From assembly GCF_026626685.1 (NCBI RefSeq), contig NZ_JAPNJX010000021.1, forward strand, positions 41,329 to 105,328: DNA of 64,000 nucleotides, written 5' to 3'. How positions within the stretch are numbered: position 1 is the stretch's first letter; each line of letters opens with the position of its first letter. The translations under genes were made by a program, and so were the position numbers. This document shows, in pieces, positions 371-61,558 of this stretch. Under the pieces are notes generated by a model. That model was given only the letters and a program-made list of their open reading frames with translations. It made no database searches and was not told where the DNA came from. Origin of the DNA: Nannocystis sp. SCPEA4 (GTDB taxonomy: Bacteria; Myxococcota_A; Polyangia; Nannocystales; Nannocystaceae).

Positions 371-1495
371 ATGCTCCGCCCCTCGGTCGCCGACATCGCC
401 TTCGACGCCGCCCTGTTCGACGCCCTCCGTGCCGCCCTGGCTCGCGGCGAGCTGAGCCCCACGCGTTCGCGCTTGTCGGCGCCGCCACGGCCGCTCGGCG
501 AGGGCGACCTGCTCGACCTCGACCGCGCCGACGCGCGCCCGCGCTGGCGCGAGCGCGGCGAGGCGGCCCTGGGCGCGCGCAAGGTCGCGGCCCTGATCCT
601 CAACGGCGGCATGGCCACTCGCTTCGGCGGCGTGGTCAAGGGCGTGGTCCCGGTGCTACCCGATCGACCTGACCTTTCGTTCCTGGCCGTCAAGCTCGCC
701 GGGGTCCGCGCCGCCGGCGTCCCCGCGGTCGTCATGCACAGCTTCGCCACTGCGGCCGCCTCGGGTGATCACCTGGCGACCATCGGTTGGTCGGGCGTGC
801 CGGCGAGCGACCGTCTCGAGTTCCTGCAGTCGCTGCTCCCGCGCGTCCTGCCCGACGGCACCCCGCTGCTGAGCCTGCCGGGCGCCCACGCCCTGCCCGA
901 CACCACCGTCTACGCCGCGCCCGGCCACGGCGACACCCTCCGCCGCGTGCGTGACAGCGGCGTCGTCGCCGAGCTGCGCGCCCGCGGGGTCGAGCACGTC
1001 CTCGTCTCCAACGTCGACAACCTCGGCGCCTCGCTCGACCCGACGATCCTGGGCGCGCACCTCGAGGCCGTCGAGGCCGGCGCCGAGCTCAGCGTCGAGG
1101 TCGTCCCGCGCGCCCCCGACGACGCCGGCGGCTGCGTCGCCGAGGTCGACGGCCGCCCGATCATCGTCGAGTCGTTCCGCCTGCCCCCGGGGACAGCCCT
1201 CGATCAGTACCCGCACTTCAACACCAACACCCTGTGGATCTCGCTGAAGGCGCTCGAGCGCACGCACCCGCTGACGTGGTTCCCGGTCGAGCGCACCATC
1301 GAGTGGCCTGGCCGAGAGGACATGTCCGTCGTGCAATTCGAGCAGCTGATCGGCCAGCTCACCGAGTTCGCGCGCACCGCCTGCCTGCTGGTCGATCGCC
1401 GCCGCTTCTTGCCGATCAAGACGCGCGCCGACCTGGCCCAGGCGCGCCCGGCGATGGCCGAGATCGTCCGCGGCGTCGGCCTCGACCCCCGCTGA
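371..1495 (+). CDS. UDPGP-family nucleotide-sugar pyrophosphorylase (UTP-glucose-1-phosphate uridylyltransferase-like)
   Basis: 374 aa. Pyrophosphorylase motif ILNGGMATRFGG resembles the LNGGLGTxMG loop of eukaryotic-type UGPase/UAP family. GC3-rich codon usage. Sits upstream of pgi. Confidence 0.55.
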   Translation: MLRPSVADIAFDAALFDALRAALARGELSPTRSRLSAPPRPLGEGDLLDLDRADARPRWRERGEAALGARKVAALILNGGMATRFGGVVKGVVPVLPDRPDLSFLAVKLAGVRAAGVPAVVMHSFATAAASGDHLATIGWSGVPASDRLEFLQSLLPRVLPDGTPLLSLPGAHALPDTTVYAAPGHGDTLRRVRDSGVVAELRARGVEHVLVSNVDNLGASLDPTILGAHLEAVEAGAELSVEVVPRAPDDAGGCVAEVDGRPIIVESFRLPPGTALDQYPHFNTNTLWISLKALERTHPLTWFPVERTIEWPGREDMSVVQFEQLIGQLTEFARTACLLVDRRRFLPIKTRADLAQARPAMAEIVRGVGLDPR

Positions 1496-1568
1496 CCCAC
1501 CGCCTCATCGGGCGTGGGGCAGCTCTGGACAACGCCGTCCGCCCGCCCCGGAGCAACCTCGACGCGAA

Positions 1569-1865
1569 GCACATCGTCGCGTCGCGAGCGAGCGCCGGAT
1601 ACGACGCCCAGAGGTCCGTCCGAGGGATGGCCGGCCCCGGCCGTCCCTCGGGCGGAATGCACCTGCGCGAAGAGACAGCTCCCAGCGAAGCCCGCGACCG
1701 GCGCTCGGGCCACCCACGAGTGGGCCGTGCCAGCGGTCGGGGATGCGGTCCTTCGACCATCCGCAGCGAGATGGGCCCGACGAAGGAGGGTCCATCCGCG
1801 AGGACTGGGCGGAGGACCGCATCCCCGACCGCACGCGAGGCGCATTCGGCAGTTCGCGAAGCACG
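1569..1865 (+). repeat. Copy A of a ~297 bp structured interspersed repeat element
   Basis: Near-identical to 6651-6950 (reverse orientation) and 61172-61466. Contains two strong hairpins: ccgagggatggccgg/ccggccgtccctcgg, and gtcggggatgcggtcc...ggaccgcatccccgac flanking ~65 bp. Confidence 0.8.
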
Positions 1866-2000
1866 AACATCAGGCCGCCGCGAACCACGACCAAGCCGCC
1901 GCGAATCACGAACAGCCCGCCGCGAACCCCGAACACCAGGCCGCCGCGAACCACGACCAAGCCGCCGCGAACCAAGCCACCGGCCCCAGCCGAGCCAGCC
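1866..2000 (+). repeat. Tandem ~21 bp repeat (caagccgccgcgaaccacgac) x about 5-6 abutting element copy A
   Basis: Direct reading: caggccgccgcgaaccacgaccaagccgccgcgaatcacgaacagcccgccgcgaacccc... The repeat is periodic. Confidence 0.7.
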
Positions 2001-2064
2001 GCCCGCCCGCAGCGGCTCGTCGACCCCAGCCGTCGCCCCGCGACGCTGCTATAAAGCCGCGCAC

Positions 2065-3654
2065 ATGGCCGACACACTCGACCACTACCTCACCTGGCGC
2101 CTTTACCGTGCCGAACTCGACATCGAGCTCGACTTCGCCGACGCCCAGCTCGACGAGCCCTCGCTGACTGCCAACGCCTCGCGGCTCGAGGCTGCGCTCG
2201 ACGCTCTCCACCGGATCGAGGGCGGCGCCGTCGCCAACATCGACGAGGGGCGCATGGTCGGGCACTACTGGCTGCGCGACCCGGAGCGGGCGCCCGACCC
2301 CGAGATCGCCGTGGCGATCCACGCCAGCTGGCGGAACATCGAGGCCTTCGCGGCCGGCGTGCGCAGCGGCCAGATCGCCGGCGACGACGGGCGGCCGTTC
2401 ACCGGCGCGATCCTCGTCGGGATCGGCGGCAGCGCGCTCGGGCCGCAGCTGCTCGAGGCCGCGTTGACCCCGCGCGACAGCGGGCCCGGCTTCCGCCTGC
2501 GCGTGCTCGACAACACCGATCCCGCCGGCATCGCCGACCTGCTCGCAGAGACAGGTACTTTGGCGCAGACGCTGATCCTCGTCGTCTCCAAGTCGGGTTC
2601 GACCACCGAGACGCGCAACGGCATGCTCGAGCTGCGGGCCGCGTGTGCGCGCCAGGCGATCGAGTTCCCGAAGCGAGCCGTCGCCATCACCATGGAGGGC
2701 AGCCAGCTGGACGAGCTGGCGGCGCGCGAGGGCTGGCTGGCGCGCTTCCCGATGTGGGACTGGGTCGGCGGGCGCACCAGCGTCCTCTCGCCCGTCGGCC
2801 TGCTGCCGGCCGCGCTGCTCGGGCACGACTGGCGCGGCCTCTTGCGCGGGGCCGCGGCCATGGACCAGTGGGGCCGCGTGCGTCCGGCGCGGCGCAACCC
2901 GGCCGCGCTGCTGGCGTGGCTGTGGTACCAGCAGGGCCAGGGACATGGCCTTCGGGACATGGTCATTCTGCCATACAAAGATCGCCTGTCGCTGCTGTCG
3001 CGCTACCTGCAGCAGCTGGTGATGGAGTCGCTGGGCAAGCGGCTCGATCGCCAGGGGCGCGAGGTGTGGCAGGGCCTCGCGGTCTACGGCAACAAGGGCT
3101 CGACCGATCAGCACGCCTACGTGCAGCAGCTGCGCGACGGCCTTCACAACTTCTTCGCCGTGTTCGTGCGGGTGCTGCGCGACCTCGACGGTCAGGTCAC
3201 GGGTCCGGGCCAGGTCGAAGTCGAGCCGCGCGTGAGCTCGGGCGACTGCCTCGACGGCTTCTACCAGGGCACGCGCGCGGCGCTGGCCGAGCGCGGGCGC
3301 GCCAGCGCGACGCTCGTGCTGCGGGACGTCGACGCGGCCGCAGTGGGCGCCATGATCGCGCTGTTCGAACGCGCGGTCGGGATCTACGCCGAGCTGATCG
3401 ACGTCAACGCCTACCACCAGCCCGGCGTCGAGGCCGGCAAGCAGGCGGCGAAGGGCGTGCTGCAGCTGCAGGGCGCGGTGCTGTCGGCGCTGCCGGGCGG
3501 TCCTGGAGGCAAGACCTGTCGCGAGCTCGCGGAGGCGCTCGGCGCCGACCCCGTGGCCGTGTGGCAGGTCCTGCGCCACCTCGCCATCAACGGGCGCGTG
3601 AGCGTCGACAGCCTCGTCGATCCGGCGACTGCACAGTTCGCGCGCGCGCCCTGA
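2065..3654 (+). CDS. pgi: Glucose-6-phosphate isomerase
   Basis: 529 aa. PGI-family signatures present: ILVGIGGSALGP, LILVVSKSGSTTET, and C-terminal ...NAYHQPGVEAGK. ATG at 2065 is the first in-frame Met after the repeat element. Confidence 0.85.
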   Translation: MADTLDHYLTWRLYRAELDIELDFADAQLDEPSLTANASRLEAALDALHRIEGGAVANIDEGRMVGHYWLRDPERAPDPEIAVAIHASWRNIEAFAAGVRSGQIAGDDGRPFTGAILVGIGGSALGPQLLEAALTPRDSGPGFRLRVLDNTDPAGIADLLAETGTLAQTLILVVSKSGSTTETRNGMLELRAACARQAIEFPKRAVAITMEGSQLDELAAREGWLARFPMWDWVGGRTSVLSPVGLLPAALLGHDWRGLLRGAAAMDQWGRVRPARRNPAALLAWLWYQQGQGHGLRDMVILPYKDRLSLLSRYLQQLVMESLGKRLDRQGREVWQGLAVYGNKGSTDQHAYVQQLRDGLHNFFAVFVRVLRDLDGQVTGPGQVEVEPRVSSGDCLDGFYQGTRAALAERGRASATLVLRDVDAAAVGAMIALFERAVGIYAELIDVNAYHQPGVEAGKQAAKGVLQLQGAVLSALPGGPGGKTCRELAEALGADPVAVWQVLRHLAINGRVSVDSLVDPATAQFARAP

Positions 3655-3697
3655 CGCGCGAGACGTCGCGGGCGCGAGCGAGTATCCTCCCGCGCCC

Positions 3698-5113
3698 ATG
3701 TCCACGGTCCCGGGACTCCGCGCGCTCATCACCCTCGCCTGGCCGATCGTGCTCGCACGCTCGGCGCAGTCGGTGATCAGCTTCAGCGACGCGGCGATGG
3801 TCGCTCCGCTCGGCGACGACGCGCTCGCGGCCGCGACCACCGGGGCCCTGAACTCGTTCGCCCTCCTCGTGCTGCCGATGGGCATCACGTTCATCGTCCA
3901 GAGCTACGCGGCCCAGCTGGCCGGCCAGGGCGACCTCGTCAGCGCGCGCCGCTACGCCTGGTACGGCCTGTGGCTCGCCGTCCTGGCGATGATCGCGGGC
4001 GTCGCTGCGATCCCGGCGATCGACCCGCTCCTCTCGCTGACCGGCCACGCGCCGGCGGTGCGCGAGGTGATGGCCGACTACATGTCGATCCGCATCGTCA
4101 GCGCCGGCGTGGTCGTCGGCACCGAGGCGCTCGGCAACTGGTTCGCCGGCCTCGGCAACACGCAGGTGGCAATGCGCGCCAGCTTGACGGCGATGGTCGT
4201 CAACATCGTCGTCAACTGGGTCCTGATCTACGGCAACCTCGGCGCGCCGGCGCTCGGGGTTCAGGGCGCGGCGTGGGCCAGCGTGCTCGCCAGCGTCGCC
4301 GGCTTCGCCGTCGCCTGCCACGCGTTCTGGCGCGCGCGCAAGCAGACGGCCGTCGACCCCGCGACCATCGGCCCCGTCGAGCACGCCGTACCTGTCCTTG
4401 CAGCCAGCTCGGACGGCCGCCTCAACGCGCGCGAGTTCTCGCGGATGCTGCGGTTCGGCCTGCCGAACGGCCTCAACTGGTTCCTCGAGTTCGCGGCCTT
4501 CCTGATCTTCATCAACGTCGTGCTCGCCGAGCTCGGGACCGTCGCCGTCGCGGCGCTCATGGCGGTGAGCGCCGTCAACTCGGTGTCGTTCATGCCGGCG
4601 TTCGGCCTCGCCTCGGCGGGCGCCGTGCTGGTCGGTCAGGCGATCGGCGGCGGCCGCCACGACCAGGTGCCGCGGCTCGTGCGCCAGACCTTCTCGGTCA
4701 CCGCCTGCTGGCAAGGGCTGGTCGGCCTGCTCTACTTCGCCATCCCGGTGCCGTTGATGATGATCTTCGCCCGCGACGAGGTCGCGGGCTCGAGCGAAGT
4801 GGTGGTCCTCGGCGCCCAGCTGCTGGCGATCAGCGCGGTGTGGCAGCTCTCCGATGCCGCCGTGATGACGGTCAACGAGGCCCTGCGCGCCGCCGGCGAC
4901 ACCGCGTGGCCCCTCGCGGCCCGCATCACCGTCTCCTGGGTGATCTGGCTGCCACTGGCATGGCTCAGCGTGTTCGTGTGGAAGGGCGGCGCGGTCGCGG
5001 CGACGTGGAGCATGGTCGTGTACATGGTGTTCCTCGCGCTGGTGCTCGTGCTGCGCTTCCGCAACGGGGCATGGCGGCGCATCGACCTCACCGGCCAGGG
5101 CGCCACCGGCTAG
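3698..5113 (+). CDS. MATE family efflux transporter
   Basis: 471 aa, 12 predicted hydrophobic helices. N-terminus LITLAWPIVLARSAQSVISFSDAAMVAPLG is typical of the NorM/MATE family. Confidence 0.75.
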   Translation: MSTVPGLRALITLAWPIVLARSAQSVISFSDAAMVAPLGDDALAAATTGALNSFALLVLPMGITFIVQSYAAQLAGQGDLVSARRYAWYGLWLAVLAMIAGVAAIPAIDPLLSLTGHAPAVREVMADYMSIRIVSAGVVVGTEALGNWFAGLGNTQVAMRASLTAMVVNIVVNWVLIYGNLGAPALGVQGAAWASVLASVAGFAVACHAFWRARKQTAVDPATIGPVEHAVPVLAASSDGRLNAREFSRMLRFGLPNGLNWFLEFAAFLIFINVVLAELGTVAVAALMAVSAVNSVSFMPAFGLASAGAVLVGQAIGGGRHDQVPRLVRQTFSVTACWQGLVGLLYFAIPVPLMMIFARDEVAGSSEVVVLGAQLLAISAVWQLSDAAVMTVNEALRAAGDTAWPLAARITVSWVIWLPLAWLSVFVWKGGAVAATWSMVVYMVFLALVLVLRFRNGAWRRIDLTGQGATG

Positions 5114-5167
5114 CGCCGCGATCGCGGCACTTCGAGACTTCCTCGCGCCGGAGAACGAGCGAGGAAG

Positions 5168-6505
5168 TCAGTGGCACTGCAGCTCGCCGCGGGCCTGCGT
5201 CCAGTCGTGGCGCGCCAGCGCGTCGGCGGGGATCCAGAAGTAGAAGAAGCCGCCGTCCTGATTGAGCAGCAGGCCGTCCTGCTCGACGGCGTCGATCTGC
5301 AGCAGGAGCCGCCAGCGCAGTGACTGCTGCTGGATCTGCAGCGACTCCGCGGTGCCGTCCTCCCACCCCTCCCAGCCCTGCGGACGCGTGGCGATCTCGA
5401 TGTCGAGGTACGGGTCGCCCTGGATCGCCGCGGGGTGACCGAGCAGGCGGTGAAACGGACGCTCCGGCTCGTTGACCCGCTCGGCCCCGGCGATGAAGTA
5501 CGCGAGCGGCCCGGACGGGACGAGCTCCTCGCCGCTGCCCTGCCGACGCCCGCGGTGACAGGCGAGCACGCGCTCGAAGGGCAGCAGCGACTCGTAGAAG
5601 AAGTAGCTCTCGAGCGAGGGGAAGTGCACCTCGTCCTCGAGGTCGATCGCGTGAGCGCGCAACCTCTCGACCCCCGCGGGCACCGGACGCCGCGCGAGCT
5701 CGTCGAGGTCGGTGAAGTGCAGGACGCGGACGGGGTGGCCGCGGACGCCGTCAGGCGGGATCGGGGCGTAGAAGAAGCTCAGCAGGCCGTGCGCGGGCAG
5801 CTCGCCGGCGGCGGGCCGACCCGCGAGCTCGGCGAGGTCGAACTGGGCGACGAAGGTCAGCAGGACGCCGCCGTCCTCCGGCCACGCGAACGACGGCGGG
5901 AGGTCGGGGTCGCCGCCGAGGCGCGTCTGGCCGATCGGGCAGGTCGAATCGTCGTCCTCGTCGTCGGGGTCGAGGTGCAGCCGGAGCGCGGGACGAGCCA
6001 GCGCGCGCACCTCGGCGGCGTGTTCGGCGAGGCCGAGCGCCTCCAGCTCGTCGCGCCAGGCGGCTTCGCCGGCGGCCTCGTTCATGGCGGCCAAACGTTC
6101 GGGATCGCCGAGCGCAGCGGCGAATTCGTCGGCGTGCTGGAGCGCGTCGTCGGCGAGCAGGTCGGCGTAGGCGAACAGGTCGCAGGGCAACAGGGTGTCG
6201 GCGTCGTCGCCGTGGGCGGCGAGGATCGCCGGGATGGCGCGCAGGTTGCCCTCGAGGTAGGCCCGCAGGCGCGCCGGCGGGTGCTCGCGCTCGTCACCGA
6301 GGTAGACCTCCTGCTCCCGCACGTCGCGCGGGGTGTCGCTGTCGGGGGCATCGAAGTAGACGAGGGTGAGCGCGGCGCGGAGGTGGCCGTTCTCGTCGCG
6401 CCAGACCAGCTGGGGGTGGTCGGGGGCGAGCTGCAGGGCGATCGCGCCGGCGCGCTGGGGGAGGATGCGCTGGAACAGCTCGCGGAGGTCGTCTTGGGTG
6501 CTCAC
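5168..6505 (-). CDS. DUF1963 (YwqG-like) domain protein
   Basis: 445 aa. C-terminal block LGGDPDLPPSFAWP ... WRLLLQIDAVEQDG...GGFFYFWIPADAL matches DUF1963 conserved motifs. Confidence 0.55.
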   Translation of the reverse strand: MSTQDDLRELFQRILPQRAGAIALQLAPDHPQLVWRDENGHLRAALTLVYFDAPDSDTPRDVREQEVYLGDEREHPPARLRAYLEGNLRAIPAILAAHGDDADTLLPCDLFAYADLLADDALQHADEFAAALGDPERLAAMNEAAGEAAWRDELEALGLAEHAAEVRALARPALRLHLDPDDEDDDSTCPIGQTRLGGDPDLPPSFAWPEDGGVLLTFVAQFDLAELAGRPAAGELPAHGLLSFFYAPIPPDGVRGHPVRVLHFTDLDELARRPVPAGVERLRAHAIDLEDEVHFPSLESYFFYESLLPFERVLACHRGRRQGSGEELVPSGPLAYFIAGAERVNEPERPFHRLLGHPAAIQGDPYLDIEIATRPQGWEGWEDGTAESLQIQQQSLRWRLLLQIDAVEQDGLLLNQDGGFFYFWIPADALARHDWTQARGELQCH

Positions 6506-6650
6506 GCGGGGATTGTAGCGGCCGGCGGCGGGCTGCGCGAGCCTGTGCTTGTCGCTGGTGACGTCTGCTTATGGGGCGCTTGGGACATGTCCTTTTGAGC
6601 ATTGTCTTTTGGACATGACTGAATAGACAGTGTACTCGGCGGTGTGAGTG

Positions 6651-6950
6651 TCGTGCTTCGCGAACTGCCGAATGCGCCTCGCGGGCGGTCGGGGATGCGG
6701 TCCTCCGCCCAGTCCTCGCGGATGGACCCTCCTTCGTCGGGCCCATCTCGCTGCGGATGGTCGGAGGACCGCATCCCCGACCGCTGGCACGGCCCACTCG
6801 TGGGTGGCCCGAGCGCCGGTCGCGGGCTTCGCTGAGAGCTGTCTCTTCGAGCAGATTTATTCCGCCCGAGGGACGGCCGGGGCCGGCCATCCCTCGGACG
6901 GACCTCTGGGCGGAGTATCCGGCGCTCGCTCGTGACGCGACGATGTGCTG
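6651..6950 (-). repeat. Copy B of the ~297 bp structured interspersed element (inverted relative to copy A)
   Basis: The reverse complement aligns along its full length with 1569-1865 at more than 90 percent identity. Confidence 0.8.
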
Positions 6951-6952
6951 CG

Positions 6953-7145
6953 CGACAACCACGCGGTAACTCCGTCGCTCGCTCGTGACGCGACGATGAC
7001 TGCGAGACGACCGCGCTGCGACTCCGTCACTCGCTCCGCGACGACGTGCTGCACGACGACCATGCCGCGGCTCCGTCGCTCGCTCCGCGACGATCACTGC
7101 GCGACGACCACGCTGCGACTCCGTCGCTCGCTCCGCGACGATGAC
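6953..7145. repeat. Tandem ~42 bp repeat x about 4.5 abutting copy B
   Basis: Unit ...gcgacgaccacgctgcgactccgtcgctcgctccgcgacgatgactgc... The unit itself contains the terminal sequence of the element (cgctcgctcgtgacgcgacgatg). Confidence 0.75.
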
Positions 7146-7166
7146 TGCGAGACGACCGCGCCGGCG

Positions 7167-8159
7167 TCAGCGGCCGGTGAAGGCCGCCAACAGTTCGGCG
7201 GCGGCGTGGTCGGGGCTGAGGTGGCCGCTGCGGACGGCGGCTTCGAGCTCGGGGCGGCGGGCGAGCACGGCGGGGTCGGCGGCGAAGCGGCGCATCAGTT
7301 CGGCCTCGATGGCGCGCCACAGCCAGTAGACGTGCTGGGCCTCGCGCTGGGCCCGCCAGGCTGGACCTGACTGAAGGGCCAGGCGGTGACGCTCGACGGT
7401 CTGCCACAGCGCGGCGAGGCCGGCGCCCGTGACGGAGGAGGTGGTGACGACGGGCACGGACCAGCCGGGGTGCTTGGGGCGGATGAGGCGCATCGCCAGG
7501 GCGTACTCGGCGCGGGCGCGCTCGGCGGCGGCGGTGTTGTCGCCGTCGGCCTTGGTGATGGCGAGGATGTCGGCGAGCTCGAGGATCCCGCGCTTGATGC
7601 CCTGCAGCTCGTCGCCGGCGCCGGCGAGCATGAGGACGAGGAAGCAGTCGACGAGCTGGGCGACCATGACCTCGGACTGGCCGACGCCGACGGTCTCGAC
7701 GAGGACGACGTCGAAGCCGGCAGCCTCACACAAGAGCACGGTCTCGCGGGTGTGACGGGCGACGCCGCCGAGCTCGCCGAGCGAGGGCGAGGGTCGGATG
7801 AAGGCGCGAGGCTCGCGGGCCAGCTCCTGCATGCGCGTCTTGTCGCCGAGGATGCTGCCGCCGCTGCGCACGGAGCTGGGATCGACGGCCAGGACGGCGA
7901 CGCGACGGCCGAGGTCCCGCACGAGGTGGAGGCCGAGCGCCTCGATCAGCGTGCTCTTTCCAGCTCCGGGACTGCCGGTCACGCCGACGCGCAGCGAGCC
8001 GCCGGCGTCGGCCTGCAGCTCGGCCACCAGCTCACGCGCGAGCGCTTGATCGTCGGCGCGCTGGCTCTCGACCAATGTGATCGCCCGCGCCAGCACCGCT
8101 CGCTCGCCCGCCCTCACCCCCGCCGCGTACGCCTCGACGCTGAGCCGCCCCCGTGCCAT
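7167..8159 (-). CDS. meaB: Methylmalonyl-CoA mutase-associated GTPase MeaB/ArgK
   Basis: P-loop GVTGSPGAGKST, and VETVGVGQSE, ITKAD motifs typical of ArgK/MeaB G3E GTPases. Start chosen at MARGRL; the in-frame upstream extension is Arg-rich and unlikely to be coding. Confidence 0.8.
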   Translation of the reverse strand: MARGRLSVEAYAAGVRAGERAVLARAITLVESQRADDQALARELVAELQADAGGSLRVGVTGSPGAGKSTLIEALGLHLVRDLGRRVAVLAVDPSSVRSGGSILGDKTRMQELAREPRAFIRPSPSLGELGGVARHTRETVLLCEAAGFDVVLVETVGVGQSEVMVAQLVDCFLVLMLAGAGDELQGIKRGILELADILAITKADGDNTAAAERARAEYALAMRLIRPKHPGWSVPVVTTSSVTGAGLAALWQTVERHRLALQSGPAWRAQREAQHVYWLWRAIEAELMRRFAADPAVLARRPELEAAVRSGHLSPDHAAAELLAAFTGR

Positions 8160-11189: not shown

Positions 11190-14100
11190 GCCTCCTCCTG
11201 CGCCACCTCGAAGCCAACGGTCCGCTGTCGCGCGCCGATCTCGAGGCCGCGAGCCGGCGGCAACAACAGGCCGGCGGCAGCCTCGACACCGCGATCCTCG
11301 AGCTCGGCCTGATGACCCCGCTCGCGCTCGACGCCCTGCTGCAGAGCGCCTGCGGCCTCCCGGGCGCGCCGGTGCGGCTGCTCGAGCGCGGACCGACCCG
11401 TCCCTGGGAACATGTCCCGAGAGACCTGGTCGACATCGGCTGGGCCATGCCCCTCGCGGCCGAGGAGGGGCGCCTGATCGTCGCCGTCCACCCCGACCTG
11501 CCCGACGCCAAGCTCGGCCAGCTGTACCGCCTGATCCGCGGCTTCTACCCGGTGGTCGCGCCCGAGTGCTGCCTGGCCAAGGTCGCCGTCGAGCGCACCG
11601 GCGCCATCCTGGCCCCGCGCTACGCGTTGATCCTGCTCGACTACCTCGAGGCGCTGCGCAGCACGACCCCCACGGTCCACCTGCCCGCCTCGGACGCGCC
11701 GCTCCAGGACATACCTGTCCCGGCGGACAGGCAGAACGCCGGCCCCCGCCCGGCCGCGATGTCGGGCCCGGCCGTGGCCGCGCGCGCCAGCACGACGCCT
11801 GTCTCTTCGGAGAGCAGCGGTGCGAGCTCGCCGGCGGCCGCGCCTGTCGCTTCGGACAGGGCCGAGACCGCTCACCCGTCCGCTGCGGCTGCAGCGGATG
11901 CCACGGCGCGAGCGCCGGAGCCGACCGCGGACAACAGCGGCGCGACGCCGGCCTCTGCCGACCTGGCCGCTCCGTCTGCGTCCGCGCCGCCCGCCTCGCC
12001 TTCACCTGTCCCTTCGGACAGCGGCGCGCCTGACCGCTCGGACAGCGGTCTCGAGCCCGGGCCCGCCGCTCCCCGCCCGACCGTCGCGCCTGACCGTTCG
12101 GACAGCACTGCCGAGGCTGCATCTGTCCCTTCGGGCAGCACCGCCGCCGACCCGGCTGCGCCGGCCCGTTCGCACAGCAGCGATGCCGCGGCCGCCTCCG
12201 AGCCTGTCTCTTCGGACAGCACAAGGGAGGTCGCCCCCCCCGCGGCCGTCGCCTCGGCTGCCCACGACCTCGGCGCGCCGCGCAGCAGCGCCGCGCAGGC
12301 CGAAGCGGACCGCTCCGCCGAACCGGCGAGCGGCCATCAACCTGTCTCCGAGGCCAGCACGGCGGCCCCGTCTTCGCCTGTCCTGAAGGACAGCCCGGCG
12401 AGCGAGCCCTCCGGCGCCCAGCCCGTCACGGGCGAGTCGACCACCGCCGCGTCCGAGCCGCGACCCGAGCCGGAGGCGCCCGCGCGAGCCGTATCTGTCC
12501 CTTCAGACAGGGCCGAAGAAGCAGCTCCGCGCGCCGCGACGTCGATCACCGACGCGCCTGCCCCCGAGCCCGCCCCCAGCCGGGCGACCGGGACCGCGCC
12601 GATGCCGATCGCCGCCGCCGTCGCCAACCGCCCGCCCGTCGGCATGGAGGCAGTCCCGGTGGCTCCCGACGCGCCGCTCGTCGCCCCGCGCGGCTTCGAG
12701 GGCTTCGGCGGCTCCTCGCTGTCGGGGCTGGCCATCGCTCCGGACACGCCACTCATCATCTTGCCGCCGGAGGGCGCCGCCCCGGAACGCACCGGCCCCG
12801 CCAAGTTCGCGGTCAGGGAGACCGCGGCGTGGCCGGCCGCCGCCCGCGAGCGGCCCAGCCAGAGCCCGCCGTTCGAGCGCCCGGCCGTGGCCCCCGCCTC
12901 GGACCGGCCTTCGCCTGTCTCTTCGGACAGCCTCGCGCCCGCCCCGGCCGCACACGGCCCGAGCAACGGCGTCGCCCATCCGGCGGCTGCCGCCGCCGCC
13001 GCTCCGATCACACCTGTCCCGACGGCCAGCTCGCGCCCGGCCGACCCGGCCCAGGATGCACCTGTCTCTTCGGCCAGCCATGGGATGGTCGAGTCGTCGT
13101 CCCGCAAGCCGCCGCCGCCGCCGCAGCCGATGGTCATGACCCTGGCGCAGCGGCTCGACGCCGCCCGGGCGACGCTGGCGACCGCGCGCGAGCGCGACCG
13201 GATCACCGAGGCGCTGGTGCGCGCGGCCTCATTGGTCGCCCCCCGCGTGGCCCTGTTCGGGGTCAAGCGCGAGGGTCTGCGCGTCCTGGCCGCGCCCGGC
13301 AGCGCCCTGCAGCTGGCCGAGGGCGTCGTGCTCGCCTTGCCCGAGGGCGGCCTGCTCGATCGCGCCGTCACCGGCCAGGGCCCGCTGCACCTGCTGGCCG
13401 AGCCGAGCCTGTCGTCCGCGGTGGGTCAGCCGCTCGGGATCCCCTGCATCTTCGAGCCGGTCCTCGCCGGCGGCCGCACCGTCCTGATGCTCTACCTCGA
13501 CCGGGCCGGCGTCGCCTTCGATCCGCGCGAGCGGACCGTCCTGCGCGAGCTGTGCGACACCGCGAGGCAGAGCCTCGAGGCCCTGCTCCGGCTGCTCGGA
13601 TGGGTCGTGCCCGGCGGCACGCCCGGAGCGGGTCCGGCCGATCGCTCGCGCCCGGCCGTGCGACCGCACCTGGCGACGCCGGTGGTCACGGTCGACGAGA
13701 CCGACGCCGCGAGCACGGACGACGCCGAGGACAGCGCGCCGCAGGTCGCCGCGGCGGCCCCGGCCGAGCCCACCCCCGAGGCCGAGGAGCCCGAGGCACC
13801 GCTGCCCCCCGCGGGCGGCACCATCGAGCCCGGCTTCGGTGACAGCGCCTCGACCAGCCGCTCGCGCGGCCGCGGCAACAACCGCGGGCGCGCGGTCATC
13901 ACGCTGAAGAACCCGATCCGGCGCGACGAGCTGTCGACCGTGACCCCGCTGCCGGTCCGCCCCGAGAGCTCCGCGGCCACGCGCGCGCCGACGCTGGTGC
14001 TCGAGGATGCGCCCACCGACGCCGACGCCGACGCCGACGAGTCCGGCGGGCTGGACGCCGCCGAGCTCGAGCGCGAAGAAGAAGAGGACCGCCGCGACGG

Positions 14101-16258
14101 GCCCGGCCTCGGGCTCGCGCCGGTGCCGGTGCCGCTCGGCCCCGAGGGCGGGGACAGCCCGCTGGTCGCCCGCTTCGCCGCCCTCTACTCCAAGCCGCTG
14201 CCGTCGGTCACCATCGACCTGTCCGATCGGCCCAATACTTTCGGACATGCGCGTAACGACATGTCCTCCGCGCCAGCCGAGAGCGGGCCCGACATGCCCG
14301 GCTGGATCGCCGACTCCGAGGCCTCGGGCATCGAGGATCCGCTGCCGGTGGCGGACGCGCTGCGGACCGCGGGCCTGGCCGCCGGCGCCGAACGGGGCCT
14401 CGACCTCGATCCCGCCGCGACCTTGCCGGGCGCGCCGCGGGTCGTCCTCGACGAGGCCACGCGGGCCCGGGCCGCCGCGCCCGACCCCGAGTTCGACGCC
14501 TGGCCGCGCGCCGCCTCCGACACGCCGACGGTCCTCGACCTCTCGCCGCCGCCGGCCCACGAGCCGCCGATGGTGGAGACGCGCGCGACACCCGACGCCA
14601 AGACGGTCCTCGACATCCCGCCGCTCGATCCCACGGTCCCGCCGTCGACGCTGATCCCCAACCTGATCGCCCCGCCCGGCACCCCGGGCGCCGGCCGCCG
14701 CCGTCGCACGCCCGCGCCGGTCGAGGACGAGCCGGTGCTCGTGATCCCGAAGACCCTGCGGCGCCAGGGCGGGCTCACGGCCACCCCGCACCCGATGGCG
14801 CGCCGCAGCGATCCGAGCGGCGAGGACAGCACGGCCACGCTGTCGATACCGACCACGCTGATCGGCCCGCGCAGCGGTCGGCGCCGCGGCAAGCAGGAGC
14901 CGCGCTCCGAGGCCTCCTCGAGCGCGCTCAGCATGCCGCGGCTGGTGCGCGAGCCGGGGACGGACGACGCGTCCGATGATCCGGCCAGCGCCTCGACCTC
15001 CCGCGGGGCCATCCGGCATGCCCCCGACGACTCGGCCAGCGCCTCGACCTCCCGCGGCGCCACGCGGCATGGCCCCGACGACTCGGCCAGCGCCTCGACC
15101 TCCCGCGGCGCCATCCGCCGCGGCCCCGACGATTCGGCCGGCGCCTCGACCTCCCGCGGCGCCATCCGACTCGGCCCCGACGATCCGGCCAGCGCCTCGA
15201 CCTCTCGCGGCGCCATCAAACATGTCCTTGAGGACATGCCCGCCGCGACCGGTCCCGAGGAGCAGGTCGCCAAGGACAGCCCGACTCCGGCCCCCGCCCC
15301 CGCCGAGGACCTGGCTGCCGAGGAGCCCGAGGCGACCAGCGCCGACGCGGTCGCGCAGGCGGCCCTCAGCGACGACGAGATCGACGCGATCATCGAGGTC
15401 TTCCTGCAGAACCCGGCCGAGTGGACCAGCGTGTCGCGGCTGCGGGCGCTCGACCAGCGCGGCCTGGCCCGCCTGGCCGCGCGCTTCCCCGGACCGATCG
15501 ACCTGGCGAACGCGACCAACTTCCCGCCGCCGAGCGCCCACGGCCCGCTGCTGCGCGCCTGCGTCGAGCTCGGGCACGCGGTCAGCCCGCACATCCTGGC
15601 GCTGTTCGCCAGCGTGCGGCCGCAGATCCGCTTCTACGCCGCGTTCCTGTTCCAGGAGCTGCGCGACCCCCGGTGCCTGCGCCCGCTCGGCGAGCTCGCG
15701 TTCGACACCGACCCCGACGTGCGCCTGATCGCCACCCGCGTGCTCGAGTCGTACAGCCGCGTGCCCGACTTCGTCGCGGTCGCCGCCGAGATCCGCGAGG
15801 AGCTCGAAAGCCGCGACCGCGACCGCCAGCTGCTCGCGGTCGAGGCCGCCGGCACGCTACGCGACACCCTCGCCGTGCCGCGGCTGATCGACCTCCTGGC
15901 CGTGCGCGACAAGCACGTCCGCGAGGCCGCGCTCGAGGCCCTGTGCTCGATCACCGCCAAGCACCACGGCTACCGCGCCGCCCGCTGGCGCGCCTGGTAC
16001 GCCGAGCACGGCCACGAGCCGCGCATCGAGTGGGTCATCGACGGCCTGCGCCACCGCGACGAGGCCGTCCGCCGCTGGGCCGCCGACGAGCTGGCGCGGA
16101 TCACCGGCCAGCGGATCCCGTTCCCCGCCGAGGGCGACCGCCGCAGCCGCGACCTCGCCCTGCGCGCCTGGCAGGCCTGGTGGGACAGCAACCGCGAGGA
16201 CTTCACGCCGGCAGCCGAGGCCCGCCCCGGCGATGCACCGGCCGCCGGCGAGGACTGA
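11186..16258 (+). CDS. Giant (1690 aa) multidomain protein: GspE-N-like N-terminus, Pro/Ala/Ser low-complexity core, C-terminal HEAT repeats
   Basis: GTG start overlaps the RDD stop (GTGA). N-terminus LLRHLEANGPLSRADLEAASRRQQQAGGSLDTAILELGLMTPLALDAL resembles the T2SS-E N-terminal domain. The C-terminus carries multiple HEAT/PBS-lyase-like repeats (VRLIATRVLES..., HVREAALEALCSI..., EAVRRWAADELARI). Confidence 0.6.
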   Translation: MSLLLRHLEANGPLSRADLEAASRRQQQAGGSLDTAILELGLMTPLALDALLQSACGLPGAPVRLLERGPTRPWEHVPRDLVDIGWAMPLAAEEGRLIVAVHPDLPDAKLGQLYRLIRGFYPVVAPECCLAKVAVERTGAILAPRYALILLDYLEALRSTTPTVHLPASDAPLQDIPVPADRQNAGPRPAAMSGPAVAARASTTPVSSESSGASSPAAAPVASDRAETAHPSAAAAADATARAPEPTADNSGATPASADLAAPSASAPPASPSPVPSDSGAPDRSDSGLEPGPAAPRPTVAPDRSDSTAEAASVPSGSTAADPAAPARSHSSDAAAASEPVSSDSTREVAPPAAVASAAHDLGAPRSSAAQAEADRSAEPASGHQPVSEASTAAPSSPVLKDSPASEPSGAQPVTGESTTAASEPRPEPEAPARAVSVPSDRAEEAAPRAATSITDAPAPEPAPSRATGTAPMPIAAAVANRPPVGMEAVPVAPDAPLVAPRGFEGFGGSSLSGLAIAPDTPLIILPPEGAAPERTGPAKFAVRETAAWPAAARERPSQSPPFERPAVAPASDRPSPVSSDSLAPAPAAHGPSNGVAHPAAAAAAAPITPVPTASSRPADPAQDAPVSSASHGMVESSSRKPPPPPQPMVMTLAQRLDAARATLATARERDRITEALVRAASLVAPRVALFGVKREGLRVLAAPGSALQLAEGVVLALPEGGLLDRAVTGQGPLHLLAEPSLSSAVGQPLGIPCIFEPVLAGGRTVLMLYLDRAGVAFDPRERTVLRELCDTARQSLEALLRLLGWVVPGGTPGAGPADRSRPAVRPHLATPVVTVDETDAASTDDAEDSAPQVAAAAPAEPTPEAEEPEAPLPPAGGTIEPGFGDSASTSRSRGRGNNRGRAVITLKNPIRRDELSTVTPLPVRPESSAATRAPTLVLEDAPTDADADADESGGLDAAELEREEEEDRRDGPGLGLAPVPVPLGPEGGDSPLVARFAALYSKPLPSVTIDLSDRPNTFGHARNDMSSAPAESGPDMPGWIADSEASGIEDPLPVADALRTAGLAAGAERGLDLDPAATLPGAPRVVLDEATRARAAAPDPEFDAWPRAASDTPTVLDLSPPPAHEPPMVETRATPDAKTVLDIPPLDPTVPPSTLIPNLIAPPGTPGAGRRRRTPAPVEDEPVLVIPKTLRRQGGLTATPHPMARRSDPSGEDSTATLSIPTTLIGPRSGRRRGKQEPRSEASSSALSMPRLVREPGTDDASDDPASASTSRGAIRHAPDDSASASTSRGATRHGPDDSASASTSRGAIRRGPDDSAGASTSRGAIRLGPDDPASASTSRGAIKHVLEDMPAATGPEEQVAKDSPTPAPAPAEDLAAEEPEATSADAVAQAALSDDEIDAIIEVFLQNPAEWTSVSRLRALDQRGLARLAARFPGPIDLANATNFPPPSAHGPLLRACVELGHAVSPHILALFASVRPQIRFYAAFLFQELRDPRCLRPLGELAFDTDPDVRLIATRVLESYSRVPDFVAVAAEIREELESRDRDRQLLAVEAAGTLRDTLAVPRLIDLLAVRDKHVREAALEALCSITAKHHGYRAARWRAWYAEHGHEPRIEWVIDGLRHRDEAVRRWAADELARITGQRIPFPAEGDRRSRDLALRAWQAWWDSNREDFTPAAEARPGDAPAAGED
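14976..15235 (+). repeat. Tandem 60 bp (20 aa) repeat x about 5 inside the giant protein
   Basis: Encodes DDSASASTSRGAIRHGP-like units repeated five times. Confidence 0.7.
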
Positions 16259-16274: not shown

Positions 16275-16375
16275 CAGCCTGCGGTTCAGGACATGTCGTC
16301 CTGCACATGTCGCCGAGGACATGCGGTCAGTGACATGTGAAAAAGGACATGGCCTCACGGCCATGCCCTTTCAGT
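16275..16375. repeat. Array of about 6 (G)GACATG motifs in a convergent intergenic region
   Basis: aggacatgtcgtcctgcacatgtcgccgaggacatgcggtcagtgacatgtgaaaaaggacatggcctcacggccatgccc. Confidence 0.5.
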
Positions 16376-16391
16376 CATGGGGCCGCGCGGC

Positions 16392-21098: not shown

Positions 21099-22520
21099 CT
21101 ACTTCAGCGCGCCGCGATGGGCGTGCGGTTCCGGCGGAACGGGGGGCATCCCCGCCTGCGGAGCGACGCGGTACTCGTTGAGGCGGTACTGGATCTTGCG
21201 CGGCGAGATCCCGAGGATCTTGGCCGCCTTGCTGGTGCTGCCGCCGACGTGCTCGAGCGTCCGCAGGATGGCGTAGCGCTCGATCTCTCGCAGCGACGCG
21301 CCGGGGATGACCGGCGCGGAGTCGTCTCCGCGCATCTTCGACATCAGCTCGCGCGGCAGGTCGCGCGGCTCGACCTCGGTGCCGCGCGCGAGCACCACCG
21401 CCCGCTCGACGCTGTTCTCGAGCTGACGGATGTTGTCGGGCCAGTCGCAGCCGAGCAGCACGCCGAGCGCCCGCTCGCTGAAGCCGACCACCGGGCGGTG
21501 CGCCTGGGCGGCGAACTGGCGCAGGAAGTACATCGCCAGCAGCGGGATGTCGTCCCGGCGCTCGCGCAGCGACGGCATGCGCAGGCTGACGACGTTGAGG
21601 CGGTAATAGAGGTCCTCGCGCAGGCGGCCGTCCTGCTTCGCCGCGCCGATCTCGTGGCTCGTGGCCGCGATCACGCGCACGTCGGCGTGCAGTGGTTCGC
21701 TGTCGCCGACGCGACAGAACCCTCGCTCTTGCAGGAAGCGCAGCAGCGCGGCCTGGACCCCGTGCGGCAGCTCGTCGACGTCGGCGAGGAAGAGCGTGCC
21801 ACCGTCGGCCTCGCGCAGCCGACCCTCGCGCAGCACGGCGCCGCCGTCGCGCACGCCGAACAGCTCGCGCGCGCAGGCCTCGTCGGTGAAGCCGCTGCAC
21901 TGCAGGCTGACGAACGGGCCGCGTCGCCCGCTCCAATGATGGATGAGGCGCGCGAGGTGTTGCTTGCCGGTGCCGCGCTCGCCGGTGACGAGCACCGACA
22001 CCGGCGAGTCGGCGACCTGCCGCGCCAGGCCGAGGAGGTCGCGGAACACCTTCGACTGGCCGATCACGCCGGTGCGCTGGTCGGCGCGCTGACTCTCGAG
22101 CGCCGAGCGCAGATGCCTCGCCTCGCGCTGCAGCGCGCGGTGACGCAGGACCCGCTGCAACACGATCAGCAGCTGCGGAAGATCGACGGGCTTGCTCAGG
22201 TAATCGTCGGCGCCGAGATGGAGCGCCTCGACCGCGCCCTCGACCGAGCCAAAAGCGGTCATCACGACGACAGCGACGTCAGGGTAGATTTCACGGAGCT
22301 TGGATATGAGCTCCAGACCGTTGAGACCCGGCATCTTCACGTCGGTGATCACGACGTCCGGTTCCCACTGATCGACCCGTCCGAGCGCCTTGTAACCGTC
22401 GGCGGCGGACTGGACCTCATAACCTTCCTCTCGCAGCAACTCGCTCAACGCTGATCGAGCGCTCGACTCGTCATCGACCACCAAAATTCGGGTCGGCCTG
22501 GGCTCTTCAAAGTTCGTCAT
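21099..22520 (-). CDS. Sigma54-dependent response regulator (NtrC family)
   Basis: Receiver ILVVDDE...DVVITDVKMPGLNG. AAA+ sigma54-interaction domain with GERGTGKQHLA and the GAFTGA-equivalent. C-terminal Fis-type HTH. Confidence 0.85.
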   Translation of the reverse strand: MTNFEEPRPTRILVVDDESSARSALSELLREEGYEVQSAADGYKALGRVDQWEPDVVITDVKMPGLNGLELISKLREIYPDVAVVVMTAFGSVEGAVEALHLGADDYLSKPVDLPQLLIVLQRVLRHRALQREARHLRSALESQRADQRTGVIGQSKVFRDLLGLARQVADSPVSVLVTGERGTGKQHLARLIHHWSGRRGPFVSLQCSGFTDEACARELFGVRDGGAVLREGRLREADGGTLFLADVDELPHGVQAALLRFLQERGFCRVGDSEPLHADVRVIAATSHEIGAAKQDGRLREDLYYRLNVVSLRMPSLRERRDDIPLLAMYFLRQFAAQAHRPVVGFSERALGVLLGCDWPDNIRQLENSVERAVVLARGTEVEPRDLPRELMSKMRGDDSAPVIPGASLREIERYAILRTLEHVGGSTSKAAKILGISPRKIQYRLNEYRVAPQAGMPPVPPEPHAHRGALK

Positions 22521-24229: not shown

Positions 24230-24831
24230 GACTCTCCCTCCTCGGCGGCCGCCGGCGCGGCGACCTCTTCTTGCTTCTGCAGCTCCCAGGTGGCGAGCTC
24301 CACCTCGGCGTTGAGGCGGTCCTCGAGCGCCGACGGCGAGCGCAGCATCAGCCGCTCGACGAACAGGATGTTGCCCGGCTGCGCCTCGAGCTTGGCGAGG
24401 AAGTTCAGCAGCTCCTCGAGCGCGACGTTGCGGACCTCGAACGCGACCACGGTCTTGATCAGGCCCTTGTCGTCGACGGCGACCGGCGGGCGCACCTCTT
24501 CGCCGCGCAGCGTGCCGGTGACGAGGTCCTTCTGGGCCTCCTCGAGCAGGATGGAGAACACGATCGGCTGCGCGTTGGCGATCTTGGCCTCGCGCGCCTC
24601 CTTCTCCTTCTTCTTGGTGTCGTACGCGGTGCCCTTGGTGCGCACGAGCGCCAGGCCCTCGCGCAGCTCGGCGATCTCGGCGCGGGCGGTGTCGAACGAG
24701 CTCTTGCGCATCATGAACAGCACGCCGACCGCGGTGACGAAGAACACCAGCATCAGCACGCCGAGCAGCGCCCGCTCCCGCGGGTTGAAGCGGGACATGA
24801 ACCCGAACAGGGTGGAGTCGATGGCGCTCAC
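24226..24831 (-). CDS. gspM: Type II secretion system protein GspM
   Basis: ~200 aa bitopic protein (LLGVLMLVFFVTAVGVLFMM) placed between gspL and gspN. GTGA overlap with gspL. Confidence 0.55.
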   Translation of the reverse strand: MSAIDSTLFGFMSRFNPRERALLGVLMLVFFVTAVGVLFMMRKSSFDTARAEIAELREGLALVRTKGTAYDTKKKEKEAREAKIANAQPIVFSILLEEAQKDLVTGTLRGEEVRPPVAVDDKGLIKTVVAFEVRNVALEELLNFLAKLEAQPGNILFVERLMLRSPSALEDRLNAEVELATWELQKQEEVAAPAAAEEGES

Positions 24832-26591: not shown

Positions 26592-26631
26592 GGGCTGCTG
26601 TCCTTGCGGTTGAAGATGGGAGCCATGGAGG

Positions 26632-28002: not shown

Positions 28003-28011
28003 GGCGAAAAC

Positions 28012-28737
28012 TCAGCGGGAGAAGTCGATGCGCTCCTGCAGCGGGATGAGGGCCTGGGTGACGTACTTGACCTCCTTGCCGAGGTCCGGGTCCCACACGC
28101 CCAGCGTGATCTTGACCCGCTCCGGCAGGCGGTTCGGCTGCATGTCCTGCTTCATCGTGCGCCACTCGTCGCGCCACTCGATGCGCTTGTTGTCCCAGTA
28201 CTTGACGTCGAACGACTTGATGTCCTCGCAGAACACGTAGGCCGGGAAGAACTCTTCGAGCTTCTCCGGCAGGTCGCCCATCAGCCGCCGCGCCTCGCGC
28301 TTGTACAGGTGGGTGCGCGTGCCGTCGTTCGGGTCCTTGAACAGGAAGTACTGGATGACCGACTGGTCGCTCTCGTTGGCGTCCTTGCGCATGCGGATGT
28401 GGGCGAACGCCGAGAACGTGAGGCTGTCGGAGTAGAACAGGTCGCGGCCCTCGAACAGCGTGTAGTGCTTCTCGTCCCCGGCCGGGCGGTTGTGCGACAG
28501 GTAGGCCATCGACAGCTCGGCGCCCATGCGCGCCAGGCAGTTGCGCAGCACCGCGTACTTCTGCTGCACCTTCTCGGCGTGGCGCATGCTGGTCGCGGTG
28601 GTGCTGAAGCTGGCGTAGACCGAGGCGATCATCATCGTGATCATGGTGACCGCGACGAGGATCTCGATCAGCGACATGCCGCGCTGGCTGGCTGCCCGCC
28701 GGGACATGGTCGAAGGGACATGGCGGATGGGACTCAT
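28012..28737 (-). CDS. gspJ: Type II secretion pseudopilin (GspJ-like)
   Basis: Prepilin-type N-terminus RGMSLIEILVAVTMITMM. Confidence 0.6.
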   Translation of the reverse strand: MSPIRHVPSTMSRRAASQRGMSLIEILVAVTMITMMIASVYASFSTTATSMRHAEKVQQKYAVLRNCLARMGAELSMAYLSHNRPAGDEKHYTLFEGRDLFYSDSLTFSAFAHIRMRKDANESDQSVIQYFLFKDPNDGTRTHLYKREARRLMGDLPEKLEEFFPAYVFCEDIKSFDVKYWDNKRIEWRDEWRTMKQDMQPNRLPERVKITLGVWDPDLGKEVKYVTQALIPLQERIDFSR

Positions 28738-29507: not shown

Positions 29508-29508
29508 G

Positions 29509-30522: not shown

Positions 30523-30561
30523 GATCCTTCTTGCGGAGAAACGACCGGGCCTAGCGCCCGA

Positions 30562-31011: not shown

Positions 31012-31034
31012 TGGTCTCTCCTGAGGTACTCGGG

Positions 31035-32276: not shown

Positions 32277-32282
32277 GCTCTG

Positions 32283-34151
<1,869 letters not shown>

Positions 34152-34170
34152 GTCAGACGAGAGGATAGCC

Positions 34171-37655: not shown

Positions 37656-39068
<1,413 letters not shown>

Positions 39069-39089
39069 CGCTCGAGTCGAACCCGGCTC

Positions 39090-39107
39090 TGCAATTCGGG
39101 GTCCCGG
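39090..39107 (-). promoter_or_regulatory. Candidate sigma54 (-24/-12) promoter: ccGGgaccccgaaTTGCa
   Basis: GG-N10-GC spacing with a good -12 TTGCA, located ~25 bp upstream of the regulator ATG in an unusually AT-rich island. Confidence 0.3.
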
Positions 39108-60562: not shown

Positions 60563-61171
60563 CCCAAGATGCCAGAGCGGCGCTCCGCGATCAAGAATCC
60601 ATCGCGCTGGCGGGTGCGGCGCGAGTGATGCGTGCCGCGACCTGTCGCCGGCCATGTGGGCCCGCGTCGCCGGTGTAAGAAGGCCCTGTTCGCCGGCAAC
60701 GATGACGCTTCATCGCCGGACTGTGCTTCCACCTCGTGGGCCTGGCCGGCGAGCAAGACGCTTCGCAGCTCGCGGTGCCTGCCCGGCGCGAACCACTTTG
60801 CTGACGACGGCCGCGGTGCCGAGCCGGCGGGCACCGCTCAGCGAAGTGCGGTGCACGAATCGCGGCGAAATGCCTCCATGATCGGCGTGTCGTGGTAAGG
60901 GCCGAGGTAACAAGGACAGCTGTCCGCGACGCCTCGCCGCGCGACGGACCGGAGCGCCGCAATGTGAGGGCGACCGGAAGTGATGACGGTGCAACGTCGC
61001 CGCAAGCATCGGCACCGCGCCGGCCCTCCGGGCGGACCCGCCCTGTCGCATCTTGCGACACAGCACCCCGCGGCAACCGGCACCGAGCGGAGCAGCCTCC
61101 GCCTGGCAGTCCGCGTCGGCGAGGCATCGCCGCGCGACCGACAGCCGGCACTCCGACCGCCCGCATCGCGC

Positions 61172-61466
61172 GGCACATCGTCGCCTCACGATCGAGCGCC
61201 GGCTACGACGTCCAGAGGTCCGTCCGAGGATGGCCGGCCCCGGCCGTCCCTCGGGCGGAATGCACCTGCGCGAAGAGACAGCCTGCAACGGAGCCCGCGA
61301 CCGGCGCTCGGGCCACCCACGAGTGGGCCGTGCCAGCGGTCGGGGATGCGGTCCTCCGACCATCCGCAGCGAGATGGGCCCGACGAAGGAGGGTCCATCC
61401 GCGAGGACTGGGCGGAGGACCGCATCCCCGACCGCTCGCGAGGCACATTCGGCAGTTCGCGAAGCA
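61172..61466 (+). repeat. Copy C of the ~297 bp structured interspersed element
   Basis: Aligns along its full length with 1569-1865. Confidence 0.8.
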
Positions 61467-61558
61467 GAACTCGGCGCTCCTCGCACATTCTTCAGGACAT
61501 GCCCGAAGCAGCATGTCCCATCAGACATGCCCAAAGCCGCATGCTCTCAGGACCAGCC

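Follow-up and report, generated by a model that had tools for sequence, protein, structure and literature searches.

The tandem array at positions 6936-7161 of the window (the 64,000-nt stretch of Nannocystis sp. SCPEA4 DNA analyzed here) is probably a locus-specific VNTR built from the 5' boundary of a stably folded, non-coding element of about 300 nt, through slippage or template switching that took place in situ at the folded structure. Such arrays form in place, repeatedly and independently at different copies of the element, with at least three duplications recognizable, and their units have been gained and lost within the divergence of strains that are still about 96% identical to each other. 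A shorter array of 21-24-nt units at 1855-1978 is the mirror image of the first, located at the 3' boundary of another copy. The copies of the element present in the window and the arrays adjoining them are listed in Table 1.

Table 1. Positions in the window of the element copies and of the tandem arrays at their boundaries.
Feature	Position	Strand	Remarks
Copy A	1558..1866	+	ancestral UDPGP-pgi intergenic site; without 5' array in this genome
Copy B	6651..6950	-	MeaB-DUF1963 site; profile match E = 5e-97
Copy C	61164..61470	+	antisense to both flanking genes; without array in this genome
5'-boundary tandem array of copy B	6936..7161	-	TRF, register, unit identities
Units of the copy B array	7147-7100, 7099-7052, 7051-7003, 7002-6951	-	48, 48, 49 and 52 nt
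3'-boundary tandem array of copy A	1855..1978	+	TRF, repeat search, pattern search

Tandem arrays at the boundaries of copies A and B

TRF delimited the array beside copy B with a period of 48 and 4.6 copies (81% matches) or, alternatively, with a period of 97 and 2.1 copies. On the minus strand the units start at 7147, 7099, 7051 and 7002 and run head-to-tail, with no spacer, into the element's own head at 6950, and the MeaB stop codon (7167-7169) is directly followed by a partial unit tail (7166-7148). Each unit is made up of the element's first ~30-33 nt, corresponding to the 5' strands of the helices designated P1 and P2 below, and of a tail of ~20 nt. Both TRF and the unit register thus confirm the tandem array that the preliminary description of this DNA had reported next to copy B. 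Its span had been placed at 6953-7145, which is roughly right and falls slightly short of the true extent, and the estimated 4.5 or so units resolve in register into four units plus the element's first ~33 nt. The period of 42 bp assigned to the array was wrong, since the register gives units of 48-53 bp.

The further claim that the unit contains the terminal sequence of the element is borne out by the 23-mer cgctcgctcgtgacgcgacgatg, which has two exact occurrences in the window, one at the element terminus (6923-6945) and one in the proximal unit (6976-6998), 53 nt apart. The three distal units hold the same sequence minus 4 nt, removed by a deletion. Furthermore, a 28-nt head pattern allowing up to 3 mismatches matched only the 5' ends of copies A, B and C and the proximal B unit, with 0.00 matches expected in shuffles. 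The array keeps in register with the element terminus, with which its unit boundaries therefore coincide. Among the distal units, pairwise identities amount to 90% (u1-u2), 88% (u1-u3) and 78% (u2-u3).

No excess of structure was detected in the copy B array relative to shuffled controls (z = +1.66), its GC3 of 0.57 indicates that it is not coding, and the fold predicted for the element is the same with or without the array attached. A CRISPR array was considered as an identity for this region and rejected, because whole units, including their tails, are repeated without unique spacers.

Beside copy A, TRF reported a repeat at 1874-1974 with a period of 21 and 4.7 copies (80% matches) or, alternatively, at 1855-1974 with a period of 45. 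The units measure 21-24 nt; the first begins inside the element, at 1855, the next ones at 1879, 1900, 1921 and 1945, and position 1966 opens a partial unit. Every unit opens with CGCGAA, the 3' strand of the closing helix P1, and the first one (CGCGAAGCACGAACATCAGGCCGC, 1855-1878) is the element's own 3' end, revealing that both arrays are amplified termini, one per end. The "different tandem repeat" initially noted at copy A is hence real and does differ in sequence, but its own derivation from an element terminus had been missed. This 3' array is also unstructured when compared to shuffled controls (z = +0.63).

A folded, strand-specific element of Nannocystis

The predicted fold of copy A reaches -204 kcal/mol (z = -11) in the A(+) orientation, compared to -187 kcal/mol (z = -5.5) for the opposite strand. 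Using RNAalifold on a structure alignment of 12 copies and orthologues, we obtained a consensus of 94 pairs, 12 of which present changes on both sides. Paired cells make up 98.9% in the alignment, a value that drops to 34-43% once partners are slid by 1-3 columns, and the same displacement reduces the 12 compensated pairs to 0-3. The presence of ~60 G·U cells against 3 A·C cells in the alignment identifies the A(+) orientation as the folded strand.

The consensus fold is composed of a short closing helix of 6-10 bp made by both termini (P1), which shows no covariation, an invariant helix of 9 bp (P2) within which lie a 19-bp GC hairpin and a variable linker, one small hairpin, and an interrupted long hairpin of ~45 bp with sequence-conserved internal loops. 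At a distance of 5 nt past P1 there is an invariant GAGCG, whose bases are predicted to pair in P2, and the G directly after P1 varies. We therefore regard the element as a selected, strand-specific and functional structure that is most simply, and probably, an RNA.

Several other identities were tried and discarded. A decaying transposon was rejected in view of the covariation, the strand-specific G·U pairs and the conserved site, all of them indicative of a ~300-nt non-coding structure under selection. A coding reading was likewise rejected: nearly all six frames are open through GC content alone, a 1-nt deletion in copy C counts against translation, and the ORFs called over the element have GC3 values of 0.57-0.73, as opposed to 0.87-0.96 in real genes. 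A CsrA sponge, suggested by GGA loop motifs, was dropped because these motifs do not exceed expectation in number and N. exedens does not share the apical AAGGAGG.

Searches of Rfam with the window, with copies A and B and with copy A of N. exedens returned nothing at the gathering threshold, and only generic hairpin (miRNA) matches below it. The tRNA/tmRNA search found no genes, no promoter or terminator was found on scanning 1300-7400, and the six-frame translation of three element versions, compared with 5.8 billion proteins for mis-called ORFs over other copies, produced no matches.

In all species, a conserved box is located 7-12 nt before the start codons of the genes following copies A and B, reading TATAAA for pgi and TA[CT][ACG]AT for DUF1963 (2041-2067 and 6506-6530 in the window). 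The position of these boxes suggests that the pgi and DUF1963 mRNAs may be leaderless, and the closeness of the TATAAA box to the pgi start argues that the element is not the pgi leader.

We retrieved orthologous loci via pgi homologues. The pgi product encoded in the window shows 100% identity to the one of Nannocystis sp. SCPEA4, and the syntenic DNA of the window is ~96% identical to that of N. radixulma NCELM. Copy A is found between UDPGP and pgi, at 75-83% identity, in six further genomes of the genus, namely those of N. exedens, N. punicea, two N. pusilla strains, ILAH1 and RBIL2, whereas the surrounding intergenic DNA is unalignable between species. The same site is empty in more distant relatives with a pgi 91%, 85% and 79% identical (loci L049, L048 and L045, respectively). 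Site B, between MeaB and DUF1963, lacks the element in all six of the other Nannocystis genomes, with a gap of 86-88 nt in the pusilla-type genomes, and a further site, D, which follows a CopD-like gene, holds no element in ILAH1 and RBIL2 and is occupied in N. radixulma and in the radixulma-type strain GCA_020073745.1.

An exact 20-mer scan covering one genome per species detected the radixulma-type sequence only in N. radixulma, in four copies, and four is the copy number of the element in the N. radixulma/SCPEA4 lineage. Paralogues (92.5-98% identity) are as close to one another as are orthologues between the window's strain and N. radixulma (96.6-99%), pointing to recent duplication or gene conversion. 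The element is genus-specific, is conserved at one site in every named Nannocystis species that was examined, and has undergone a recent multiplication in a single lineage. A conserved 25-mer had 0 matches in metagenome and viral collections, and blastn against phage and plasmid collections yielded no match.

Copy D sits inside the remnant of a methyltransferase-like frame (L032 5640-5760, L050 3541-3762) that is still called as a 73-aa ORF in ILAH1 and RBIL2, and ~110-150 nt of native DNA are missing at the occupied site, which is hence not a simple insertion. The 86-88-nt gap at two empty B sites (L042 10506-10594, L043 10537-10623) contains GCGAGCGCGGGAATCCGGCAGGTCG, which looks like a junction between the end of the element head and its tail (p 0.05-0.09 for each gap versus shuffles) and could be either a remnant or a product of chance. 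Just upstream of copy A, an indel of ~320 nt distinguishes N. radixulma (L001 560-912) from the window (1531-1560), comprising ~270 nt of unrelated DNA and the 5' array.

Variation and origin of the arrays

The preliminary description called for other genomic copies to be checked for terminal arrays, and these do recur, at A, B, C and D, in numbers that vary between strains. At locus B, the window has 4 units and N. radixulma NCELM has 2. The proximal units of the two strains are 91% alike and hence orthologous, and the distal unit has expanded to three in the window. The 5' end of locus A presents 0 units in the window and a 52-nt unit repeated 2.3 times with 100% identity in NCELM; at its 3' end, the 4.7 copies of the window (80% matches) correspond to 3.8 perfect copies (100%) in NCELM and to only about two loose units in other species. 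Locus C has 0 extra heads in the window and one extra head, 128 nt upstream, in NCELM. At locus D, a 53-nt unit is repeated 5.8 times at 98% in NCELM, as five identical units plus a partial one, and GCA_020073745.1 carries ~6 degenerate head-like units of 42-54 nt. The degenerate D units (L052) keep the core ATCGTCGCGTCACCAGCGAGC.

In the other genomes examined no such arrays were seen, with weak direct repeats of 22-33 nt at the 5' boundary at most, and arrays of at least two full 5' units were observed only in the lineage where the element multiplied. A unit profile search located units only at element 5' ends, indicating that they do not constitute an independent dispersed family. Insertion of the element into a pre-existing repeat family was rejected on this basis, and also because the unit tail is absent from the 3' flank. 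Identity within arrays is 98-100% for the D units and 100% for those at the 5' end of A in N. radixulma (A'), falling to 64-81% between loci, and the B array, which is older, matches at only 81% overall. Loci B and D are unrelated, and the tails of their units are ~75% alike.

Each 5' unit combines ~20 nt of upstream DNA (93 nt in one case) with the element's first ~33 nt, and each carries the P1 and P2 5' strands, unaccompanied by the strands that pair with them, together with the invariant GAGCG. The right breakpoints fall after GCCGGA (+33) at B and D, after GGATACG (+37) at A' and after GGCTAC (+36) in the extra head at C (C'), within 5 nt of one another and 11-15 nt short of the base of the 19-bp hairpin. 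On the left, the breakpoints are scattered, lying at about -20, -15 and -93. At locus D, the joint lies between GCGCCGGA, from the element, and GCGCCGAA, from the flank. Other species have part of this flank in their empty site as well.

The positions of the breakpoints suggest that DNA synthesis entering the element would be blocked at the base of the first long GC hairpin. The nascent end may then slip back to a short upstream match, such as GCGCCG[A/G]A, and copy the boundary again; from two units on, slipped-strand mispairing or unequal recombination would alter the number of units. The 3' array could be generated by the same process acting from the opposite side, and the arrays would then be by-products of the element's structure and not parts needed for its function. 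Of the three origins contemplated in the preliminary description, replication slippage is the best supported, by virtue of the in-phase arrays, the strain-variable unit number, the occurrence of at least three origins and the uniformity within arrays in several cases. Some observations do not sit easily with a neutral stutter: at B and at D, two strains each retain an array, with the core kept in the degenerate D units, and selection could be involved. The restriction of full arrays to the multiplied lineage makes a lineage-specific activity possible, and the ~75% similarity between B and D tails is not explained by simple in-place duplication.

Judging from these sequences, it is unlikely that the arrays are functional in their own right, with the repeated 5' recognition segment either bound, as DNA or RNA, by a protein that recognises the element end (such as a regulator, or a retron RT acting in trans) or supplying additional 5' strands through which RNA folding is tuned. 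Their maintenance at loci B and D in two strains each would fit such a role, as would the common core in the degenerate D units of L052 and the P1 and P2 5' strands and invariant GAGCG found in every unit, but the element is still conserved where it has no 5' array, as in copies A and C of the window and in six other Nannocystis genomes. Furthermore, unit number, length (42-128 nt) and tail sequence vary by locus, the arrays have no structure of their own, and the predicted fold of the element is unaffected by them. It appears quite improbable that the arrays are scars of the element's spread, left either by RT template jumping during retro-integration of an msr-msd-like transcript or by abortive or one-ended transposition. 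The perfect 2.3-copy array at the ancestral locus A in N. radixulma postdates the strain split and does not mark a new insertion, unit numbers at B and D changed after insertion, and species in which only one copy is known also have the 3' array, in a proto-form of about two units; moreover, the genes scanned in the window and up to ~3 kb from D included no RT, transposase or integrase. These points outweigh the confinement of full arrays to the lineage with extra copies, the ragged 3' ends without visible target-site duplication that retro-copies could show, and the precedent of the Retron-Nex1 (Ne160) repeats, which have no RT within a kilobase and, according to the account in PMC6868368, were possibly inserted by a distant one.

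The aborted transposition envisaged at the outset finds no support: the scanned genes include no transposase, integrase or RT, the 3' ends are ragged, no target-site duplication was seen, a perfect array formed at a locus that is ancestral and non-transposed, and the element is a selected structured locus and not a decaying transposon. The idea that the array is a fortuitous resemblance, or arose from faulty assembly of a low-complexity, GC-rich region, can be considered refuted. Although the genome has ~70% G+C and most of the 147 rows listed by TRF are trivial, the scores at issue are 279-294, the head pattern is expected 0.00 times, and homologous arrays appear at the same loci in the independent assemblies of other strains, which excludes assembly artefacts.

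The arrays and the element have partial parallels in known systems. Mycobacterial MIRU loci are intergenic VNTRs of GC-rich bacteria, with head-to-tail units of ~50 bp whose variation is ascribed to slipped-strand mispairing. The Nannocystis arrays resemble them in their intergenic, head-to-tail units of ~50 bp and in the variable number of these units between close strains, but they are anchored to, and partly made of, the end of one structured element. REP units measure 20-40 nt and occur in hundreds of copies, together with a RAYT transposase. The element shares with REP, BIME and REPIN sequences its intergenic location, the formation of hairpins, compensatory changes and, in some cases, tandem clusters of variable size; in contrast to REP and REPIN sequences, it spans ~300 nt, has multiple helices and is present in four copies (exact 20-mer scan), and the repeated sequence is its boundary and not a palindrome.

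Like MITEs and IS-derived non-autonomous elements, the element is short, non-coding and multi-copy, with partly complementary ends, but it differs from MITEs in lacking clear terminal inverted repeats beyond the 6-10-bp helix, in having only four copies and in the strong purifying selection on its structure at the orthologous site. Its ends are not precise: the 3' ends of copies B, C and D stop at different points, and 5' homology fades over ~30 nt. At the empty sites A, B and D, which are too diverged or rearranged for exact junctions, no direct repeat indicative of target-site duplication was seen, and microhomology between element ends and empty sites is not significant for A and D and borderline for B (p 0.05-0.09). 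In mouse LINE-1, the variable tandem monomers at the 5' end are a retrotransposon promoter module of demonstrated function. The likeness to the Nannocystis arrays, in which the 5' terminus of a repeated element is likewise reiterated in tandem to a variable degree, is one of analogy only, and the scan of 1300-7400 found no promoter-like sequence.

VNTR formation by slippage is an ordinary class of change, and the strict anchoring of the arrays to both element boundaries is more useful than the repeats themselves. The independent events, with breakpoints clustered by the first hairpin, present a naturally occurring case in which structure drives tandem duplication in the chromosome of a bacterium. 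The arrays could also be used as strain-typing markers for the N. radixulma/SCPEA4 lineage. The element is the more valuable by-product of the analysis, combining a covariation-supported structure and the architecture of a retron ncRNA with the absence of an RT.

Retron-like outline and neighboring features

Retron-Nex1 (Ne160) of N. exedens has been described as consisting of duplicated msr-msd repeats that lack an RT within one kilobase of them and may have been inserted by a distant one (PMC6868368, citing Lampson & Rice 1997 Mol Microbiol 23:813). Work on the N. exedens msr-msd repeats also includes Lampson et al. 2002 (Gene 299:251), again as summarised in PMC6868368. Generically, a retron ncRNA has ends paired through terminal inverted repeats (a1/a2), one to three hairpins in its 5' half and one long stable stem-loop in its 3' half (PMC7736814), and this is the architecture found in the element, where the ends pair and the 5' hairpins are followed by a long 3' stem-loop (~45 bp). 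The comparison with the N. exedens msr-msd repeats, which is one of descriptions only, extends to the genus, the several dispersed copies, the lack of an RT within kilobases and the fitting architecture; the summaries of those repeats consulted here do not mention terminal VNTRs. From the P2 3' strand to the P1 3' strand the element measures ~145-160 nt, in the range of msDNA-Ne144/Ne160, although the free choice of end points makes this count only suggestive.

The element departs from retrons in several respects. Retrons have a conserved priming G, in an AGC context, at the inner end of the 5' repeat, and no conserved unpaired G of this kind was found in the element; no copy has an RT next to it, and no Rfam msr match was obtained. 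The genes downstream of the copies are pgi, DUF1963 and a convergent hydrolase, and a Pfam scan of ~30 of the 40 candidate ORFs in the window and of the genes around D (~3 kb) detected no RT (RVT domain), transposase or integrase. Unlike a dead retro-copy, copy A is orthologously conserved and displays compensatory changes.

The agreement in genus, copy pattern and architecture makes the link to the RT-less msr-msd repeats of N. exedens a strong lead by analogy. If the element corresponds to the family seen by hybridisation in N. exedens (1997), genome data allow tests of the function and spread of RT-less msr-msd sequences. A more specific proposal, which we put forward as a speculative and rather doubtful one, is that the element constitutes an orphan retron-type msr-msd family, kept by purifying selection at a fixed chromosomal site across Nannocystis, served in trans by a distant RT and occasionally copying itself to new sites, in which case the 5' arrays might represent expansions of the a2/priming segment, either as RT template-switch scars or as modulators of the msDNA yield of each locus. 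If true, this would make the proposal of 1997, that msDNA-like repeats retrotranspose in bacteria, accessible at the level of sequence.

Several features in the vicinity of the element and elsewhere in the window were recorded along the way. CATG arrays with an exact 14-nt spacing, frequently with the core GGACATGTCC, occur in the window at 16292-16379 (a run of seven), 61498-61543 (a run of four) and 6560-6640. Triple matches number 7 versus 0.02 expected, and GACATGYC has 29 matches versus 3.9 expected. These clusters are found 3' of copies B and C and, in other species (L040-L044), 5' of copy A; they are also found after the MeaB stop codon in species without copy B, and their adjacency to the element may be coincidental.

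A 51-nt repeat present 4.6 times at 14982-15217 (91% matches) is coding, specifies a 17-residue protein repeat and is unrelated to the element, and a 43-nt motif bearing the small hairpin CTGTCCCTTCGGGACAG occurs four times at 11993-12944. One of the site D loci (L032 2-2710, minus strand) encodes a protein of ~900 aa with Major Vault Protein repeat and shoulder domains, which are unusual in bacteria. Lastly, the minus strand of the window at 24800-37600 holds a gene run with PilM-like and T2SS-K-like proteins and repeated prepilin-type N-termini, bordered by two sigma-54 response regulators at 21099-22520 and 37656-39203.
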